Source: a virus. From it: a DNA stretch of 12,817 nt. The position numbers and the translations under genes are program-made. The stretch is from the UHGV virus genome UHGV-0147886. One strand, written 5' to 3'. Shown one piece after another: positions 2,907 through 12,817 of this stretch (the stretch's first letter is position 1; the number at the start of each line of letters is the position of its first letter). Below the pieces are notes generated by a model. The model was not told the DNA's origin. It did not search any database and saw nothing but the letters and a program-made list of their open reading frames with translations.

Positions 2907-3083
2907 TGACGGCCTCACCAGCGATTGCGAAAACATTCCATGACCTCGCGGTCACGGTCGGTTAATCGCTTCGCTGTGGTGCGTTTTGTGCGCCCTGTCC
3001 TGTTGGCTTTGTGCTCTGTCTCCTGTGTCTTCCATGTGTCACGCTGCCTTATCAGTCCACGTATCAGCCTGGTTTGCTCCTGT

Positions 3084-3524
3084 TCAGTCATCATCGCCAT
3101 ACATCCAGTCGTTACGGTGTGCCGCCCGTTCTTCCTGCTCGCGATACATGCCCGCTTTACGGTTTGTTTTCGTGGCTGGATCTTCCCGTGTCGTCTTACG
3201 GTTGTGGCACGTCTGGCACAATGCCTGGTGATTCCACTCAGGCCAGAAGAGAACATCACCGCCGCCATTGATGGGAATGATGTGATCCACCACAAGAGCT
3301 GGCGTATAAATCCCCTTAGCCAGACAACGCACGCATAACGGGTTTTTGCTCAGGTACAGGGCGCGGTATTTGTCCCACTGTCGGGAATACCCGCGCGCGC
3401 GGCGGTGTCCCCGTCTGGCATCCTCTGCACGCCATGCAGCCCGCCTGTGCTCTTCACACTTGCCGGACTTCACGCGCTTATTACAGCCAGGCTCAGTGCA
3501 TCGCCTTAATGGTTGCCACGGCAT
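3084..3524 (-). CDS. HNH endonuclease (phage packaging-associated)
   Basis: 146 aa. N-terminal Cys cluster CTEPGCNKRVKSGKCEEH and HNH core ...VVDHIIPINGGGD...WNHQALCQTCHNRK. Start ATG shares one base with the connector stop (TGATG). Sits next to terS, as is typical for HK97-like cos-type packaging modules. Confidence 0.85.
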   Translation of the reverse strand: MPWQPLRRCTEPGCNKRVKSGKCEEHRRAAWRAEDARRGHRRARGYSRQWDKYRALYLSKNPLCVRCLAKGIYTPALVVDHIIPINGGGDVLFWPEWNHQALCQTCHNRKTTREDPATKTNRKAGMYREQEERAAHRNDWMYGDDD

Positions 3525-3826
3525 CAGTACACCCCTACGTCACGATAAACTGACCAGAGCGCAGAAATAGCCATAGGCAGTTCCGAGTGCTCCACTGGTG
3601 AAACCGCTTCCCGGTTCTCGTACAGGAAAGCGATGTACATCAGGCAACCAACACGCATTGCCGGGGTAAATTCCAGCCCGTCTTCAAAACGTTTCCCGAT
3701 ATGCTTCTGGCAGGCTTCCAGCGCCGCATCGGTATACATTTTCAGAAGTTCGCCTTCACCGGATAAATCATCATCAAGTCGAAGATGTGCCCTGACTTCA
3801 TCAGGTGTAATTCTGGCTTCACTCAT
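3524..3826 (-). CDS. gp6-like head-tail connector/adaptor protein
   Basis: 100 aa from ATG 3826-3824 with RBS AGGGAG 5 nt upstream. N-terminus ...ITPDEVRAHLRLDDDLSGEGELL... matches the characteristic start of gp6-like head-tail connector proteins. Overlaps the portal stop by 8 nt. Confidence 0.7.
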   Translation of the reverse strand: MSEARITPDEVRAHLRLDDDLSGEGELLKMYTDAALEACQKHIGKRFEDGLEFTPAMRVGCLMYIAFLYENREAVSPVEHSELPMAISALWSVYRDVGVY

Positions 3827-5033
3827 CTTTTCTCCCTTTAATTTCCACAGTCTGTTTCCATGCCTGGCTGAACTCATCACCACCTTCACGCGGCGGCATA
3901 CCCTCACGCTCACGGGCTTCGTTCGGATTCATGATCCCGTTCTTAATCCCTTTCTCATACGTGGCATAACGTTCGGTGGGTGTGGCGCGTAATAAATCGG
4001 CTGAATCAAACTCAACCAGATAACGGGTACCAGGTACGGGAGAAGCCACCAGCAAAGCGGCCTTGATTTGCTGTTCGAAGTTCGCCAGCCACGGGCGCAT
4101 TGTCATGGTCAGAAACGCGCGGCTTGCCTCGCTGAAATTGCTGTAGGTGCTGTTGCTGTATTCCTGCAGAAAAATAGGCGATACGTTGAACATGCGGGCG
4201 ATGTCTTCAATGGAGAAGCGACGGGAGGCCAGCCATTCCGCATCCTGGTTACTCATTCCCAGTTGCCTGTAATCCATGCCCCCTTCAAGGATTGGCGTTT
4301 TTCCGGCATTTTTCGCCCCCTTGTAGCGTTCCAGAGCATCCAATGCCTGTTTACCTTTCACGCCGTCCAGCCATTCGCCTGACGTGATAATCCCTGCCGC
4401 CATCATGCCATCTTTCATAATGCTGGCTCCGTGACGCTGTTGAGCAAGGCCAAGCCCCAGCGCCTCACGGCAAATCGTGACGGGGGAACGCCCCAGAAAG
4501 CCATCATCCGAGGCATAGCGGAGATGCAAAACTTCTTCCTGTAAATACGTGCGCACCGTTCCTGTACAGGGTTCGGTGATGGTATAGCGGTATTTGTGTG
4601 CGCCTGTGCGTTCCGGTACAACACACCCCGGCGCATAAGGATGAAGTGATTTTGGCTGCCCGTCCTGCCCCCACTCAATAACCGCATAGGCGTTACCGTT
4701 CAGCAGGCAGTGACGCATCATTGTGCGTTTAAACTGGTAAGGTGTCTGGCACGAATTAGGCTGCTCATTCAGCAGAATATCTACCGGGTGACTGTCCAGC
4801 CATTCCCGCGCCTCCCTGCCCTTGTCATTACGTACCAGATACAGATAACACGGCATCGTGGCCACCGCCTCAGCGATGACAGAAACCGCATTCATCACTG
4901 CAGGCAATGATTCAGCCGTCCCGGCAGAAACATATTCTCCGGATCCGGTATTCGGTACGCCGGACAGCGCCAGAAAATCATCAATGGACAGGTTACGCTG
5001 CTCGCTTTTTTTACGACTAAAAGGCCACCACAT
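3819..5033 (-). CDS. Phage portal protein, HK97 family-like
   Basis: About 404 aa from ATG 5033-5031, which lies 1 nt after the protease stop (TGATATG). Size and sequence pattern, including a conserved C-terminal region (...FSIEDIARMFNVSPIFL...NPNEAREREGMPP...), fit HK97-type portals. The upstream extension to 5123 starts at TTG with no usable RBS. Confidence 0.85.
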   Translation of the reverse strand: MWWPFSRKKSEQRNLSIDDFLALSGVPNTGSGEYVSAGTAESLPAVMNAVSVIAEAVATMPCYLYLVRNDKGREAREWLDSHPVDILLNEQPNSCQTPYQFKRTMMRHCLLNGNAYAVIEWGQDGQPKSLHPYAPGCVVPERTGAHKYRYTITEPCTGTVRTYLQEEVLHLRYASDDGFLGRSPVTICREALGLGLAQQRHGASIMKDGMMAAGIITSGEWLDGVKGKQALDALERYKGAKNAGKTPILEGGMDYRQLGMSNQDAEWLASRRFSIEDIARMFNVSPIFLQEYSNSTYSNFSEASRAFLTMTMRPWLANFEQQIKAALLVASPVPGTRYLVEFDSADLLRATPTERYATYEKGIKNGIMNPNEAREREGMPPREGGDEFSQAWKQTVEIKGRKDE

Positions 5034-5034
5034 A

Positions 5035-5595
5035 TCACAACCCCGCCAGCTCAGACCAGCGATGACGATTATTTCCTGTCGGACGTAATTCAGGGTGCTG
5101 TGCAAACAACGAACGGTGGGCAATCTCCACGCCAGATTCTGGATAAGCAGGCATCGACGTTATTGTGATTTCACGGAGTTCAGCGGCGGTTACGGTACGC
5201 AGATACGGTTTTTGCGCGATACTCCACTCCTCGCATAATGCGCGAAAACCAAAGCTCATTCCTGTAATGTCGCCACGCTCCACCAGCGTAAGCACATCTT
5301 TTCCAAGCTGGGTATCCGGCGGTGTCAGTTCAAAACGTAACCCGGTGTTATCCTCAGTCAGTACCAGAGTGCCGGATTTGGTGCGCCCCAGCAGTTGGGT
5401 ATAGTCATGCTCATACAGGCAGCGCACATCATTACCCGTCGCCAGATAGTCAGCAAAAGCCCCCGGCGTGAACTGTTCGCGGAATTCGTCCCAGATAATT
5501 TCTGAAAGGCTGTTCCAGCGAACGGCATACCCCACCAGCTTTTTATTGCTGGCGGTCAGTTCAGATGTGCGGATTTCAAAATCGGTGTTTTTCAT
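5035..5595 (-). CDS. HK97-family prohead protease
   Basis: 186 aa with the prohead-protease pattern (...GYAVRWN...FTPGAF...CLYEHD...LGRT...GDITGMSFGF). ATG 5595-5593 with GGAG 7 nt upstream. Confidence 0.85.
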   Translation of the reverse strand: MKNTDFEIRTSELTASNKKLVGYAVRWNSLSEIIWDEFREQFTPGAFADYLATGNDVRCLYEHDYTQLLGRTKSGTLVLTEDNTGLRFELTPPDTQLGKDVLTLVERGDITGMSFGFRALCEEWSIAQKPYLRTVTAAELREITITSMPAYPESGVEIAHRSLFAQHPELRPTGNNRHRWSELAGL

Positions 5596-5606
5596 CGGTG
5601 TACTCC

Positions 5607-5637
5607 ATAAAGCTGAAAAAGGAGGCCGCAGCCTCCT
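5607..5637 (-). terminator. Intrinsic terminator-like hairpin between major capsid and protease genes
   Basis: On the minus strand, AGGAGGC-TGCG-GCCTCCT (7-bp GC-rich stem, 5620-5637) is followed directly by TTTTTCAGCTTT. Confidence 0.55.
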
Positions 5638-5649
5638 CCTTACTCATGA

Positions 5650-6819
5650 CTAGCCAGCTTTCATTTCCAGAATTTTGATGGCGTTTGAATCCACCACACC
5701 ACCGCCCAGATATTTATCCGTGTGGACCTTGTAGAATCCGGGTTCAGTAATGTTGTCCGGTCGGGTGCGAATCCCTGTTACATGATCAACGATGAAATAA
5801 CCACGACTGAAATCGCCAACCGCCAGCGGTGCTTTTCCTGCGCCGATGTCCGGCATGGACTCCAGGCAGTAAACAGGACGACCAAGCAACATATCCGGCG
5901 CACCGTCTTTAAGGCTGTCGCGCCAGATATAATCGCCGTTCTCATTTTTCAGCTTCTGTAGTGTCCCTGCCGTACCCGAGTTCATCACCCAGACGGCATT
6001 TTTGCGGTATTTCGCTTTCAGCTTGTAGAGAATGTCGATCAGTTCGTCCGCTGTAATGGCGGTTCCACTTGCCGCTACCATTTTTTCAATGGTGCCAAAA
6101 GCGCGGGTTTTGTCACTGGTCGCCGCACGGGTGTAAGCCATGAAGCCTTTCGGCTTGCCGTTACCGTCGCCATTAACAAAATCATCCTCTTCGGTGCTGG
6201 CGAACGTGTCGGCAATTTCGGAGGATAACCAGCCCAGAATATCCACCTCTGAAAAATCAAGGATTTCCTGCGTGGTTTTCGGGTAGGCGTAGATCGGATT
6301 CAGCTTGATGGTTACGCGTTCAATTTTCGGGGTGTTGGTTTCACTGCGTGCGCTGCCTTCTGTGCCTCGTCCTACAGTTGCGCCGCCAGTGGAAACCAGT
6401 TTCTGAAACTCATTTGATTTTGCAGTCTTCACGGTCGCGATCACGCGCATAACACTGTCATCCTGTAGCTGGCGCATGACTTCGCGATCGAGCTCAGGAA
6501 TTACGGTATATCCGCCATCCCTGCCGCTGTCAGTGCTGGTGGACAGTGATCGCACATCTCCGGTTACGATGTAGTTACGCAATTCATCAGATGATAATTT
6601 CTGGATGCCCGTTCCTGGCTTGCTGCGTTCTTCATCAGCCACAGACTCGAGGCGGGAAATTTCTGTGTCGAGGGAGTCGGCTTTTGCACGCAGTTCATCA
6701 AACTGTTTGCCCTCGTCATCGTTCAGGCTGCGGTTTTCACTGTCGGCTTTTTCCAGCAGGGATCGCATCTGGTTTTTCAGGGCGGTTTTTTGCTGGCGGA
6801 GTTCGATTAATTTCTTCAT
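5650..6819 (-). CDS. Major capsid protein, HK97 fold, with N-terminal scaffold/delta-like coiled-coil region
   Basis: 389 aa. The first ~100 aa are charged and coiled-coil-like (MKKLIELRQQKTALKNQMRSLLEKADSENRSL...), followed by an MCP-like body (...NGDGNGKPKGF...). First gene of the head operon, after a long untranslated leader. Confidence 0.9.
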   Translation of the reverse strand: MKKLIELRQQKTALKNQMRSLLEKADSENRSLNDDEGKQFDELRAKADSLDTEISRLESVADEERSKPGTGIQKLSSDELRNYIVTGDVRSLSTSTDSGRDGGYTVIPELDREVMRQLQDDSVMRVIATVKTAKSNEFQKLVSTGGATVGRGTEGSARSETNTPKIERVTIKLNPIYAYPKTTQEILDFSEVDILGWLSSEIADTFASTEEDDFVNGDGNGKPKGFMAYTRAATSDKTRAFGTIEKMVAASGTAITADELIDILYKLKAKYRKNAVWVMNSGTAGTLQKLKNENGDYIWRDSLKDGAPDMLLGRPVYCLESMPDIGAGKAPLAVGDFSRGYFIVDHVTGIRTRPDNITEPGFYKVHTDKYLGGGVVDSNAIKILEMKAG

Positions 6820-7052
6820 GAAGGTTTTCTCGTATTGGTTAAGATTCAGGACGTGAAACCAACACGGAGGGAGCGCCGCCCGACACTCTCGGCATCTCGC
6901 AGATCAACCCGGCATCGCGCAGGGGGTCAGGCGGCATTGTGGCGGCTCACGTCTGAGTGCCACACGCCAACATATACATAAAAATCAGTATGTAAATATC
7001 AGCCAGAATCACTGAACAGCCAGAAACAACCACGAACAAATAATTTACAAAA

Positions 7053-7084
7053 CCTGAAAAAAAGACCCGGGAAAAATCCGGGCC
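7053..7084 (-). terminator. Rho-independent terminator closing the replication operon
   Basis: On the minus strand, a GGCCCGG/CCGGGTC stem (5-7 bp, GC-only) with loop ATTTTTC is followed by TCTTTTTTT. Lies 10-40 nt downstream of the 82-aa ORF stop. Confidence 0.6.
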
Positions 7085-7093
7085 TTTATCGCT

Positions 7094-7342
7094 TTACTGT
7101 TTCACGGGATCGCGCATTCTGCGCCTTATTTTCCACAAATATTCGATCATCGCTTCCACCTGCTCACGGTTGGTTGCGAAAATTTCCCCGGTCAGTGAGC
7201 TGCGCAGAAAATCATGATGATCCACAACAAATAACGCATCGGAAGAAAGCAGACGGCGATATTTTTTTGCTGTCGTGGTTTCCAGATCATCAATACCATG
7301 AAACTTTTTATGTTGCTGAACTTCTTCAAATGTCACTGGCAT
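7094..7342 (-). CDS. Hypothetical 82-aa protein
   Basis: ATG 7342-7340 with strong RBS AGGGGGA. 17 nt downstream of the ssb stop and followed by the terminator. No recognisable motif. Confidence 0.6.
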   Translation of the reverse strand: MPVTFEEVQQHKKFHGIDDLETTTAKKYRRLLSSDALFVVDHHDFLRSSLTGEIFATNREQVEAMIEYLWKIRRRMRDPVKQ

Positions 7343-7782: not shown

Positions 7783-7845
7783 GCTGTCTGTTCTCCGGTT
7801 TTAACGTTGATAGTTACGCTTGTTTACACCCTTACGGTGAAATTC

Positions 7846-7970
7846 TGCGGGTTATAATCGCACTTTTGCGGGTTATAACTGCCGTTTTGCGGGTTACGTG
7901 CGGGTTATTGATTTCCTTTTTATTCATACAGTTAATTCACTTATACACAGGATAACCCGCATAACCCGCA
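7846..7970. repeat. Iteron cluster 2 (putative origin-like region), immediately 3' of the replication protein gene
   Basis: Four direct TGCGGGTTA(T/C) units at 7846-7855, 7867-7876, 7888-7897 and 7899-7908 (21-, 21-, 11-bp phasing). AT-rich spacer 7909-7951. Two inverted ATAACCCGCA units at 7952-7961 and 7961-7970. Confidence 0.65.
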
Positions 7971-7993: not shown

Positions 7994-10117
7994 TTAATCG
8001 TCTGCCTCAGGCTGGAACATCATCACGTAAAAAACATGCTGCTTACCCCCAATTTTGCCGAGCGCCTTTTTCTTGTAACGGCGATCGTTACCCGCTTCCA
8101 GCATTCCGGCAGCACTCAACGCGCGGGCAAAGTGAGACGGATTAAATCCCTGTGCTATCTCACCCTCAAACACATGAGGAAACGTGTAAAAACGGAACTC
8201 ATCATCTTCATTTCTGATACTCCCCTTTCTGTATCCGGCAAGGTCTTTAATCGGTAAATCACGCTCATCACTGTTTGGGTAAGGAAGGTATCGACTGAAC
8301 CCGAACGACGACAAAAACGCCTCAGCCTGTTCAACCATCTGTTTAAATTCCCTGTTACCCGTGCCGAACTCCTTCACCCAGGCATTAAAGTTATGCTGTA
8401 TTGCGTCCCGGCATTCCTGCGCGGCCCAGCCAGTTACATGACCGGAAAGCACAAGCGCAGCCTCCAGTATGGCGAAACGTTCCCCCACGCGGTGGACCTG
8501 CTCGCCGTAGCTCTCCGGTATCAGGTTGTGCCACCGTTCGCGGCATTCCCTTACCGTGTCCTTTGCCTCCTGCTGGTGGTCTGCCAGCCATTTAACCCAC
8601 TCACGACCCGCCGCCCCGTGATTTGCAGTCCAGGCATCCTTTAACGCGTCTGCGTGCGCCTTTCCGGTGCTGTATTCGTGAAATTGCGTGGCTTTCTCCA
8701 TCGGTACGTTAAGCAGACGGACAAGCTGGCCTGCTTTGACTTTTACCCCCTCACTTTTGAGGAATGTCTCAACATCCATTTCTCCGGTGCTGATTGCCAC
8801 CGTGCGCCAGTGTTTGATCTCCCTGTTGCCGCCGTCCTTCGCCCCCTGTAATTTCCCCGAACCGTTAAACAGCGTATAGGCTGACGTGGACACTTCCCGC
8901 GCGTTTCCGGCCTGGCCTATTTCATCCAGGGGTAACAGCCCGTCGTTGTGTGCTTCGGCCTCGTTGGCGATACCTAACGCCGTTCCGTACCAGGTCAGCC
9001 GTTGCGCGTCCGGCTCTCCCCATAAACTTGAAGCGATGTTCTGCGTGGTGGTTTTCCCTGCCGATGACTGTTCGAAAAGATGTACCCCGAAGCCGTCAGC
9101 ACCAACAAGGCCAATCAAAGGTGCTGCCAGTGACGTGGCAACACCCAGCATCATGGACGGATTGCCACCAGCCAGCCGCGCCACGCTGTCGCGCCAGCCC
9201 TCCGCCGTACCCGCAACCGAATAGCCATTAACAGCGGCACTTTTTCCGGTAAACAGGATCGGTTTTTCAGAATCACCAATGATTGAACCGTCCGGCATGA
9301 TGTACGCGCCAAAATGCCAGCCCGTTGTTGTGCTTAACTGCCATTCCTCATGGCTTCCGCTTAACTGCATCCAGTCAGCCAGGATAGCCCTGTATTTGCC
9401 ATTTGTTGTCACATTCAGCCCGTGATCTTTAAGCAACCGCCAGCCGTCACGGTCGCCAATGCCACCACACGGGATCGCCATTGTGATGACTTCATGGTTT
9501 GCTAATTTTTTCCAGCGCATCACGCGGTAATGCTCTTTACCGATCGTCCCCGTTCCCAGTAGTTCAAGCGGAGAACATAACCACGTCTCAGGCCGGATAA
9601 TTTCGCCTGACTGCTTATCCACTTTGGGCGTTACCCAGAAAACACCATCGACGCGACTTTCAACGCGGGGCTTTAATTCATCATCCTGATAGCATGGCTC
9701 TTTTTTCTTTACAGGCAGTTCAACTACCTTTTTCTTTTCCGCCTGCTCTGCCCGTTCACGTTCCAGATATTCGCGCCAGTTCTCCCGTTTCTGGCTGTGC
9801 ATTCCTTCAGGATAATAATCAGCATCCCTGACACCTGCCGCTGCCAGTTTCTGCCCGATGGTATTAACAAGCCCCGGACGCAATAACCCCGCCTGATAGA
9901 GACGCACGCGATAGCGTCCGTCCGGTACGATTTGCAGGTTGTCCAGTTCGGCAAGTTGTTGCTCTCCAAGCCAGACAGGAGGCACGTTATCGCCAGCCAG
10001 TCGCCCGTCCTGTTCCTGCCACTGCTTCGCATGTGCCCACGCATCACTACCCGCAAAAATGATGACTTCCGTCATTTTGTCACGCGGCTGGTGTTTTAAA
10101 TTTGGCGCTTTTTTCAT
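7994..10117 (-). CDS. Replication initiator, P-loop NTPase of the primase-helicase type (SF3/DUF927-like)
   Basis: About 707 aa from ATG 10117-10115 (RBS GGAGAG; ATGA overlap with the upstream ORF; alternative GTG at 10132). Central Walker A ...EQSSAGKTTT... and Walker B ...LLPLDEIG.... Followed directly by the iteron cluster. A primase function for the N-terminal domain is inferred from context only. Confidence 0.75.
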   Translation of the reverse strand: MKKAPNLKHQPRDKMTEVIIFAGSDAWAHAKQWQEQDGRLAGDNVPPVWLGEQQLAELDNLQIVPDGRYRVRLYQAGLLRPGLVNTIGQKLAAAGVRDADYYPEGMHSQKRENWREYLERERAEQAEKKKVVELPVKKKEPCYQDDELKPRVESRVDGVFWVTPKVDKQSGEIIRPETWLCSPLELLGTGTIGKEHYRVMRWKKLANHEVITMAIPCGGIGDRDGWRLLKDHGLNVTTNGKYRAILADWMQLSGSHEEWQLSTTTGWHFGAYIMPDGSIIGDSEKPILFTGKSAAVNGYSVAGTAEGWRDSVARLAGGNPSMMLGVATSLAAPLIGLVGADGFGVHLFEQSSAGKTTTQNIASSLWGEPDAQRLTWYGTALGIANEAEAHNDGLLPLDEIGQAGNAREVSTSAYTLFNGSGKLQGAKDGGNREIKHWRTVAISTGEMDVETFLKSEGVKVKAGQLVRLLNVPMEKATQFHEYSTGKAHADALKDAWTANHGAAGREWVKWLADHQQEAKDTVRECRERWHNLIPESYGEQVHRVGERFAILEAALVLSGHVTGWAAQECRDAIQHNFNAWVKEFGTGNREFKQMVEQAEAFLSSFGFSRYLPYPNSDERDLPIKDLAGYRKGSIRNEDDEFRFYTFPHVFEGEIAQGFNPSHFARALSAAGMLEAGNDRRYKKKALGKIGGKQHVFYVMMFQPEADD

Positions 10118-12444: not shown

Positions 12445-12464
12445 CTCTGATTACCTGTGGTTAA

Positions 12465-12749
12465 TTAAGCAGATTTGCGGCTGTACGGGTTATTGACGTT
12501 TTCCACGGCAGGCGGATTACGAACCCACCAGAGCACATCCGAAAGAAGCCAGGCACAGCTGTTGCGGCCAAAGTGACAGCGCGGCGGGAAGCGCCCCTGC
12601 TGTTCCATCTTCCAGCGGCTCGAACGAGAAAGACTGGTGATCTCGCTGCATTCATCTTCGCGGATTCGGCGATCGAACTTGAAGCCGTACTCCTCCAGAA
12701 TGGTGCGGCGTTGTTCAGGATTTGGCGGGGTAAAGGTGATAATTTGCAT
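12465..12749 (-). CDS. alpA: AlpA-family phage transcriptional regulator
   Basis: 94 aa from ATG 12749-12747 with RBS GGAGG. Motif ...ITSLSRSSRWKMEQQGRFPPRCHFGRNSCAWLLSDVLWWV... fits the AlpA helix-turn-helix pattern (S-R-[AS]-[ST]-x-[YW] ... FP ... G..S.AW...[DE]...W). The extension to 12809 is rejected. Confidence 0.75.
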   Translation of the reverse strand: MQIITFTPPNPEQRRTILEEYGFKFDRRIREDECSEITSLSRSSRWKMEQQGRFPPRCHFGRNSCAWLLSDVLWWVRNPPAVENVNNPYSRKSA

Positions 12750-12817
12750 GTTGCCTCCACTGTTTCTAAGTTTGTGGGGGCTATTGTTATCCTTGTGATT
12801 GGATGTCACACTAGACG

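Follow-up and report, generated by a model that had tools for sequence, protein, structure and literature searches.

The 12,817-nt stretch of DNA analysed here (hereafter the window) carries most of a capsid-forming PICI (cf-PICI), a phage satellite of E. coli, whose packaging operon begins with the major capsid gene and has a terminator-like hairpin directly behind that gene. Comparison across related loci indicates that this hairpin is under selection. The best reading, which we consider probable on sequence grounds, is that of a capsid-first cf-PICI operon in which a leaky intrinsic terminator, serving also as a 3′ stabiliser, would raise the level of capsid mRNA.

Islands of the cf-PICI type measure about 10-15 kb, occupy a chromosomal att site and have an integrase at one of their ends. 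In near-identical E. coli genomes the element is ~15.7 kb long and is flanked by hpt and gcd. The copy of E. coli PEC209, which is 97% identical, lies in the same hpt-gcd interval and has a tyrosine integrase at its far end; the window itself ends before int. The full cf-PICI head and packaging set (capsid, protease, portal, connector, HNH, TerS and TerL) is present in the window, together with a DUF927 primase-type gene identified by Pfam. Neither the scanned ORFs nor the RefSeq annotation of the entire E. coli island copy showed any tail or lysis family. The HTH regulator near int (12461-12760) had no AlpA, Pfam, NCBIfam or PHROG match. Close to the window start there is a 45-nt direct repeat, which was rejected as a possible att site, both copies being at the TerL end and none at the int end.

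All genes of the module lie on the minus strand, and the identities assigned to the seven named genes in a preliminary description of this DNA were borne out by decisive Pfam scores, with no reassignment by homology. The first gene of the operon codes for a major capsid protein of the HK97 fold family (5650-6819; PF05065, E = 6e-71), which is 59-78% identical to its counterparts in more than 150 cf-PICI-like loci and 37% identical to those of ST64B/SfI-type phages. It is followed by the gene of a prohead serine protease (S78; 5035-5595; PF04586, E = 6e-46), with its own SD sequence GGAG at 5606-5603 and ATG at 5595, and by the portal gene (3819-5033, alternative start 5123; PF04860, E = 3e-92). 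For the portal start at 5033, 1 nt past the protease stop, we follow RefSeq as it annotates a copy of 99.8% identity. The gene of the gp6-like head-tail connector/adaptor (Ad1; 3524-3826; PF05135; TIGR01560, E = 1e-19; phrog_40) overlaps the portal stop by 8 nt. Next lie an HNH endonuclease gene, a packaging accessory of HNH-cos systems (3084-3524; PF01844, E = 9e-10), and, between HNH and TerS, a small conserved ORF of 61 aa mapped from the RefSeq annotation (2915-3100; phrog_3173, E = 6e-26). The P27-family small terminase subunit TerS (2439-2795; PF05119, E = 4e-23), the large terminase subunit TerL (806-2455; PF03354 and PF20441) and an ORF of 93 aa (520-800; phrog_1561, E = 1e-51) complete the module. 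Upstream of TerS, a non-coding gap of 119 nt (2796-2914, unstranded) is the putative cos region, and the linear 16.5-kb record LR881103 has its ends inside it, at ~2881. Apart from this gap and that of 54 nt between capsid and protease, the operon has no real gaps, all remaining junctions being overlapping or at most 5 nt long. A generic promoter scan of the minus strand detected no promoter-like site between the capsid and protease genes.

The inverted order capsid-protease-portal-connector-HNH-TerS-TerL, given in the preliminary description with the strand unstated, is correct in the direction of transcription. The same order was found in 136/136 complete related loci from Enterobacterales, Orbales and Pasteurellaceae, which confirms the earlier suggestion that it marks an element family. 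This signature is already published: Alqurainy et al. (2022, bioRxiv 10.1101/2022.09.08.507074) describe capsid, protease, portal and head connectors, then hnh-terS-terL, as the layout conserved among proteobacterial cf-PICIs, and gene order as their hallmark adds nothing new. The placement of the capsid gene as the first gene stands for the window but fails for the Pasteurellaceae relatives, where another gene abuts the capsid gene upstream. The canonical HK97-type order, TerS-TerL-portal-protease-capsid-connector, is absent from the window; the protein families are the same. The synteny comparison proposed earlier gave capsid-protease-portal order in the relatives and canonical order in all true phage relatives examined; these were HK97, ST64B and four more phages, retrieved one by one from GenBank. 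A scan of viral contigs with the capsid alignment returned only cf-PICI-like loci, and one with the ST64B capsid only prophages of 97-100% identity.

The GC-rich hairpin and T tract previously noticed behind the capsid gene are present at 5636-5616 on the minus strand. The stem is formed by 5636-5631 and 5626-5621 (GGAGGC/GCCTCC) around the loop TGCG, and the T5 run occupies 5620-5616, so that the RNA reads GGAGGC-UGCG-GCCUCC followed by U5. The hairpin starts 13 nt past the capsid stop codon, with the protease SD and ATG downstream. Taking an intrinsic (Rho-independent) terminator as a GC-rich stem of 5-10 bp with a loop of 3-8 nt and a U-rich tract immediately after, the hairpin has this shape: six pairs, five of them G-C, and then U5. 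The 65-nt junction folds at -22.9 kcal/mol with z = -2.1 (RNAfold). A strict scan of both strands of the window (perfect stem, at least 5 G-C pairs, loop 3-8, at least 4 T) returned this single site, against a mean of 0.135 in dinucleotide shuffles. A generic promoter/terminator scan gave 25 weak sites and missed both this hairpin and the terminator at 7084-7057 described below; the capsid hairpin was probably missed since extension of its stem by G·U and A·U pairs consumes the T run. The U tract, of only five U before a C, is short; according to RNAfold it is able to pair with an upstream A/G-rich stretch, which could weaken termination.

How widely is this hairpin conserved? A GC-core hairpin was found at 141/154 capsid-protease junctions of the relatives versus 11% of control windows, and a GC hairpin with a T-rich tail at 110 of the 154 versus 1 of 2677; about a dozen relatives have no hairpin behind the capsid gene. 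The core GGGGC/GCCCC is present in 80 of the 141 hairpin-bearing loci, and the loops vary, being mostly UUCG, UACG, UGCG or GAAA. Four stem pairs have double changes, with 96% pairing, a level reached in none of 500 shuffles; these counts come from a loop-anchored tetraloop subset chosen for having the hairpin, MAFFT being unable to align hairpins of differing loop length. As a test, the excess over control windows is less open to bias. All 15 single non-Watson-Crick stem positions are G·U or U·G on the sense strand, and none is A·C. Because the mispairs are of this kind only and stable tetraloops dominate, the hairpin seems to act as RNA of the transcribed strand. At three loci the same junction position is occupied by an unrelated stem with T5. 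At least three T directly follow the GC core in most loci, and five to eight in Pasteurellaceae; in many Xenorhabdus relatives the run goes down to 0-3. The dozen or so loci without a hairpin show that the element is dispensable. In some relatives the capsid-protease gap is just 8-18 nt. Retention of the hairpin despite 59-78% capsid identity, diverged loops and diverged flanking non-coding bases argues for selection.

The preliminary description had presented the hairpin as a companion of the rearranged gene order. This link was not upheld: HK97, ST64B, Klebsiella phi6.3, Burkholderia vB_CB2a and Vibrio K275 have the canonical order, yet each has a GC hairpin with a T-rich tail right after the capsid gene. 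A similar hairpin also follows capsid genes of only 25-37% identity, and in SPP1 a predicted terminator after gene 13 (8775-8815) matches the capsid-3′ position. Since canonical-order phages carry one directly 3′ of the capsid gene, the hairpin is an ancestral element of that gene's 3′ end and is not tied to the rearrangement. Its conservation across cf-PICIs and distant HK97-like phages, whatever the gene order, makes it a general design element of head modules. Literature searches mostly did not find an explicit statement on terminators after capsid genes.

The region upstream of the capsid gene contains further signals, all on the minus strand. A strong intrinsic-terminator-like hairpin read from the sequence (7057-7084; GGCCCGG-AUUUUUC-CCGGGUC and U7) ends the replication/accessory module, 10 nt past the stop of the ORF 7094-7342. 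It is followed by a sigma-70-like candidate promoter of the packaging operon (6969-6996; TTTACA, 16 nt, TATGTT; promoter scan), whose -10 (TAT..TT) and -35 (TTTAC/TTTTC) are conserved in Enterobacterales relatives. Five nucleotides past the -10 starts a conserved 25-nt leader stem-loop (6939-6963; GUGGC-A-CUCA-GACG-UGAG-CC-GCCAC), which covaries: it is present upstream of the capsid gene in 70/163 loci, is 99.4% paired and has three pairs with compensatory changes. A search of Rfam with it gave no match at the gathering thresholds, and relaxing the cutoff to E = 10 brought up noise alone. In the phage collection the stem-loop was found in cf-PICI-like records only, and it is present in 151 of 5426 E. 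coli genomes. The promoter and leader hairpin upstream of the capsid gene thus look specific to cf-PICIs and offer a concrete handle on the switch-on of the packaging operon, which the cf-PICI literature examined does not address.

In the reading that we favour, transcription of the packaging operon would start at its own promoter (6996-6969), downstream of the strong terminator closing the replication module, and would pass in order through capsid, protease, portal, connector, HNH, the small ORF, cos, TerS and TerL. The capsid hairpin with its U5 would have two roles in sense RNA, weak (leaky) intrinsic termination and protection of the 3′ end by its stem-loop. A fraction of the polymerases would halt there and leave a short capsid-only mRNA with a stable 3′ hairpin and probably a 5′ one too, and the others would pass into the eight tightly coupled downstream genes. 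Neither terminators nor transcripts of cf-PICIs are mentioned by Alqurainy et al. (2022) or by He et al. (2025, bioRxiv 10.1101/2025.02.11.637232), and the capsid-3′ hairpin and conserved leader of this element are likewise absent from both papers. Capsid protein, of which a T=4 head needs ~235-240 copies, would in this way outnumber the protease, the portal (12 copies) and the terminase proteins, which are catalytic. Peculiar to cf-PICIs would be that, with the capsid gene first, the ancestral hairpin damps all other head and packaging genes. That stoichiometry is set by a partial terminator behind a capsid gene in first position, as suggested earlier, is plausible and fits a T=4 capsid with its 240 capsid copies.

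It is possible, though doubtful, that the hairpin is only a stabiliser of RNA 3′ ends or a processing barrier and that read-through is essentially complete, for example by an antitermination-modified polymerase. Its role would then be to keep 3′ exonucleases away from decay or processing intermediates that end at the capsid gene, the function commonly assigned to the look-alike sites in the late operon of HK97. Late transcription is antiterminated in lambdoid phages such as HK97, where Q is responsible; the homologous hairpins there may be mainly RNA stabilisers, and that of the window could be so too if the polymerase of the operon is terminator-resistant. Such a role agrees with the presence of the hairpin in canonical-order phages, where termination could not part the capsid gene from the upstream portal and terminase genes, with the many relatives that keep the stem with a short T run or none, and with the predominance of hyper-stable UNCG and GNRA loops; the conserved 5′ stem-loop also suggests selection on mRNA stability. 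However, a pure stabiliser does not need the T runs, which at the lengths given above occur far above background, and profile searches of the window identified no antiterminator or loading site.

That the hairpin is instead an efficient terminator, with a monocistronic capsid mRNA and with protease to TerL transcribed from a separate promoter, seems very unlikely. A hairpin with a U tract in a 54-nt gap would suit this arrangement, but the minus strand has no promoter-like hexamers in or near the gap, which contains the hairpin and the SD only, and the gaps of 8-18 nt in relatives are too small for a promoter. Moreover, six strong stem pairs and a U5 tract are little for efficient termination. 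We give equally little credence to a hairpin devoid of its own function, whether as inherited baggage of the capsid cassette or as a palindrome acting at the DNA level or binding protein. Common descent could account for the strong conservation of the GGGGC/GCCCC core, but hardly for a hairpin that persists while capsids, loops and flanking bases diverge, that shows compensatory changes, that is substituted by an unrelated stem in three loci and that has similar counterparts behind distantly related capsid genes. Mispairs that are exclusively sense-strand G·U speak against a double-stranded DNA site.

A leaky terminator with stabilising function also leads to a wider proposal, which we regard as unlikely. 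The capsid mRNA of Enterobacterales cf-PICIs would be discrete and very stable, with the 5′ stem-loop (6963-6939) at one end and the leaky 3′ terminator at the other. Activation or antitermination of the whole packaging operon, dependent on helper phage or AlpA, would be exerted at the 5′ element, and the permuted gene order would be adaptive in that a single promoter and a single attenuator fix the ratios of the T=4 head. The cf-PICI layout offers a clean system for studying hairpin function, as in a capsid-first operon its loss should shift every capsid-to-partner ratio.

By gene content and order the element resembles the cf-PICIs, whose prototype is EcCIEDL933 (Alqurainy et al. 2022; He et al. 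2025); for this prototype alone it has been demonstrated that a helper phage induces it, that it builds small T=4 capsids out of proteins it encodes and that it hijacks the tails of the helper. The element of the window shares with cf-PICIs the ~15-kb island with an integrase, a primase-type replication gene and the capsid-to-TerL set without tail genes, as well as the location in the E. coli chromosome. However, the clade of the window has one connector gene, whereas most relatives have two. The genome of HK97 (NC_002167) has an annotated "putative terminator" at 5192-5213 after gene 5 (major head protein), among other "putative terminators" of the late operon. There, as in the window, the stretch from the stop codon of a PF05065 capsid gene to the next SD holds, directly behind the stop, a GC-rich stem capped by a loop of the GNRA/UNCG type and followed by a short T run. 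In HK97, in contrast, the capsid gene is the fifth (TerS-TerL-portal-protease-capsid), and thus the hairpin can lower only the connector and tail genes. T7 has its T-phi terminator after gene 10, and SPP1 and T7 are like the window in having an intrinsic-terminator-like hairpin directly 3′ of the most abundantly needed structural gene. Their sequences are unrelated, the polymerase of T7 is different, and their sites are internal or terminal to longer late units, not behind the first gene as in the window.

All long ORFs of the window lie on the minus strand, and profile searches identified the head and packaging genes among them unambiguously. These are the major capsid protein (5650-6819; PF05065, E 6e-71), the S78 prohead protease (5035-5595; E 6e-46), the portal (3819-5123, true start probably 5033; E 3e-92), a gp6-like connector (3524-3826/3913; PF05135; TIGR01560, E 1e-19), an HNH endonuclease (3084-3524), a P27-family small terminase, TerS (2439-2795/2936), and the large terminase, TerL (806-2455). 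Read along transcription, the order is capsid, protease, portal, connector, HNH, small ORF, TerS and TerL, which confirms both the gene identities and the order proposed in the preliminary description. Upstream of the packaging genes the same type of search found a DUF927 primase-type gene, SSB and small regulators.

Along its whole length, the window aligns to E. coli chromosomes at 96-98%. In E. coli PEC209 the copy is an island of ~15.7 kb between hpt and gcd with a tyrosine integrase at its end, and no tail or lysis genes are annotated in it. The layout is that of a capsid-forming phage-inducible chromosomal island (cf-PICI), a phage satellite. The prototype, EcCIEDL933, is a 15.4-kb island with int, alpA and rep together with capsid, protease, portal, connectors, HNH, TerS and TerL (Alqurainy et al. 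2022, bioRxiv 10.1101/2022.09.08.507074). Two public "phage" genomes, LR881103 (Escherichia phage vB_KppS-Ant, 16.5 kb) and OR544139 (Pasteurella phage Pmp8, 15.3 kb), match cf-PICIs in gene content and order, and they too are probably satellites.

Gene order was compared in 163 related loci from genome and viral collections (Enterobacterales, Orbales and Pasteurellaceae; capsid identity 59-99%), 136 of them complete and the remainder cut by contig ends. Every complete locus (136/136) carries capsid, protease, portal, connector, HNH, TerS and TerL on a single strand. In contrast, the nearest true phages, of the ST64B/SfI type with 37% capsid identity, have the canonical order TerS-TerL-portal-protease-capsid, as do HK97 and phages of Klebsiella, Burkholderia, Vibrio and Streptococcus. 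The synteny comparison suggested in the preliminary description thus separates the two orders, and its view of the order as a signature of the element family is borne out. The signature is not new and has already been published: Alqurainy et al. (2022, bioRxiv 10.1101/2022.09.08.507074) gave capsid-protease-portal-connectors followed by hnh-terS-terL for proteobacterial cf-PICIs. Since no gene has changed strand, the two orders are related by gene-by-gene permutation without DNA inversion. Once the genome is circular, HNH-gap-TerS-TerL is the usual arrangement of HNH-cos phages.

RefSeq gene models mapped on the window leave only two real gaps in the operon, one of 54 nt between capsid and protease and one of 119 nt between HNH and TerS (2796-2914); all other junctions overlap or are separated by at most 5 nt. 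The linear GenBank record LR881103 begins just before TerS and ends just past the small ORF behind HNH. Its ends correspond to ~2881 of the window, within the 119-nt gap, which on this placement is likely the cos region.

Several further features of these islands were observed. A 45-nt direct repeat, 98% identical (1-45 and 435-479), flanks the non-coding stretch after the last packaging ORF; the stretch between its copies is rich in GCGGGTTA/TAACCCGC motifs (~170-340), whose core recurs in a tandem 21-nt pair at 7843-7884, just downstream of the primase gene. Repeats and motifs alike resemble iterons and may point to an origin. The 45-nt repeat was rejected as an att site because the int end has no copy. 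In most relatives (among L003-L081) an additional gene of ~350 nt separates portal from connector; it is annotated head closure Hc1 or gp9 in OR544139 and LR881103. It is missing from the window clade (3819-3826 in the window) and from loci L002, L010, L014, L016, L035 and L055, and its presence or absence may be linked to usable helper tails.

The hairpin and T tract that the preliminary description placed right after the capsid gene are indeed there. On the minus strand, the gap from the capsid stop codon (5652-5650) to the protease ATG (5595) contains a GGAGGC-UGCG-GCCUCC stem-loop (5636-5621), directly followed by U5 (5620-5616) and then by the protease SD sequence GGAG (5606-5603). A strict scan of both strands (perfect stem, at least 5 G-C pairs, loop of 3-8, at least 4 T) found this as the sole site in the window, against a shuffle mean of 0.135, and RNAfold gave -22.9 kcal/mol (z = -2.1) for the 65-nt junction.

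Among the relatives, 141 of 154 junctions have a GC-core hairpin in the gap between capsid and protease, compared with 11% of 2677 control windows of 50 nt taken from the same operons; with a T-rich tail the counts are 110/154 and 1/2677. The commonest stem is GGGGC/GCCCC, and the loops vary freely, being mostly UUCG, UACG, UGCG or GAAA, all very stable RNA tetraloops. Aligned from the loop, the window-clade stem GGAGGC/GCCUCC differs from this consensus at two compensatory pairs, and three loci have the unrelated stem GCGUUCCUG/CAGGAGCGC with U5 at the same place. In the tetraloop subset, which was selected for having hairpins, 96% of cells are paired, with double changes at four pairs, values reached by none of 500 shuffles. 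Where a unique junction has one non-Watson-Crick position in the 5-bp core, it is G·U or U·G on the sense strand in all 15 cases (perhaps six independent events) and never A·C, which points to a structure of the mRNA, not to a DNA palindrome. The T run is longest in Pasteurellaceae (5-8), shorter in Enterobacteriaceae (3-5) and down to 0-3 in many members of Xenorhabdus. The hairpin is missing from about a dozen loci, most of them from Xenorhabdus and Photorhabdus, in which the gap measures just 8-19 nt; the element is useful, not essential. Two loci have an insertion between the hairpin and a full protease gene, of 0.86 kb in L033 (9179-10036) and 1.9 kb in L040 (2640-4560). The latter begins with a protease-like N-terminus and holds a second copy of the hairpin found in the capsid leader, which suggests recombination between two islands.

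How might the hairpin work within the operon? A strong terminator-like hairpin, GGCCCGG-AUUUUUC-CCGGGUC with U7 (7084-7057, minus strand), lies 10 nt past ORF 7094-7342 and stands between the replication/accessory module and the packaging operon, although the generic promoter/terminator scan did not list it. Downstream of it and upstream of the capsid gene is a promoter-like site, TTTACA-16-TATGTT (6996-6969, minus strand); the promoter scan found none between the capsid and protease genes. Together with the presence of only two real gaps, this favours a single transcription unit, probably with a partial stop at the hairpin.

Immediately behind this promoter we detected the most novel lead of the region, though it lies outside the capsid-hairpin finding. 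The leader element GUGGC-A-CUCA-GACG-UGAG-CC-GCCAC (GTGGCACTCAGACGTGAGCCGCCAC; 25 nt, 6963-6939, minus strand) starts 5 nt past the -10 hexamer. With the usual spacing between -10 and start site, the first base of the transcript would fall on its stem or a few bases from it, and the element would be a 5'-terminal stem-loop. It precedes the capsid gene in 70 of the 163 loci, all Enterobacterales cf-PICIs including some Xenorhabdus, and the promoter is conserved too (6939-6996). Of 66 unique upstream regions, 55 share the identical leader, although the capsid proteins encoded there are just 64-77% identical. In its variants, three pairs have changed in a compensatory way (GUGAC/GUCAC with CUCC/GGAG; AUGGC/GCCAU), and pairing is 99.4% against 25-64% in slid controls. 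Rfam gave no match. The phage collection has it in three records only, all cf-PICI-like, and in no true phage, and 151 of 5426 complete E. coli genomes carry it unannotated. Such a stem-loop may stabilise the mRNA from its 5' end or serve as a site that regulates the packaging operon.

With a partial stop, a fraction of polymerases would end at 5616-5612 and leave a short, hairpin-capped capsid mRNA, and the others would go on to transcribe the downstream genes, which are translationally coupled. Such a scheme agrees with the T=4 head of EcCIEDL933, with ~240 capsid and 12 portal copies, and the order capsid, protease, portal, connector, enzymes would track falling demand. Attenuation setting stoichiometry, as the preliminary description proposed, is thereby a reasonable hypothesis from the sequence. 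The argument from the first gene is limited by the hairpin-less relatives and by Pasteurellaceae (L063-L081 and OR544139), in which another gene, annotated "tail terminator" in phage Pmp8, abuts the capsid gene 10-15 nt upstream, so that capsid is not first. A serious rival is that the hairpin only stabilises the RNA and has no part in termination: lambdoid late operons are Q-antiterminated, and homologous sites there are unlikely to terminate.

Similar hairpins occur in known phages. HK97 has a GenBank "putative terminator" (5192-5213) directly past gene 5, GGGCGGG-GAAA-CCCGCCC-UUUU, and ST64B has GGGGCGC...GCGCCCC past its capsid gene. The GGGGC-UUCG-GCCCC of Klebsiella phage ST101-KPC2phi6.3 is the hairpin of most cf-PICIs; strong versions also follow capsid in Burkholderia vB_CB2a (with U7) and in Vibrio K275 (with U5), and SPP1 has a predicted terminator (8775-8815) after capsid gene 13, which ends at 8774. 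Of the canonical-order phages inspected, one Streptococcus phage lacked a capsid-3' hairpin. The supposed tie between hairpin and rearranged order therefore does not hold, and in canonical-order phages, where portal and terminase lie upstream of capsid, the hairpin has no means of setting capsid apart from them. Across both gene orders it likely serves to form the 3' end of capsid-ending mRNA or to protect that mRNA. The recurrence of the site from HK97 to SPP1 indicates an old, widespread head-module feature, and the cf-PICI hairpin belongs to this known kind as a conserved RNA element of the sense strand, older than the gene rearrangement.
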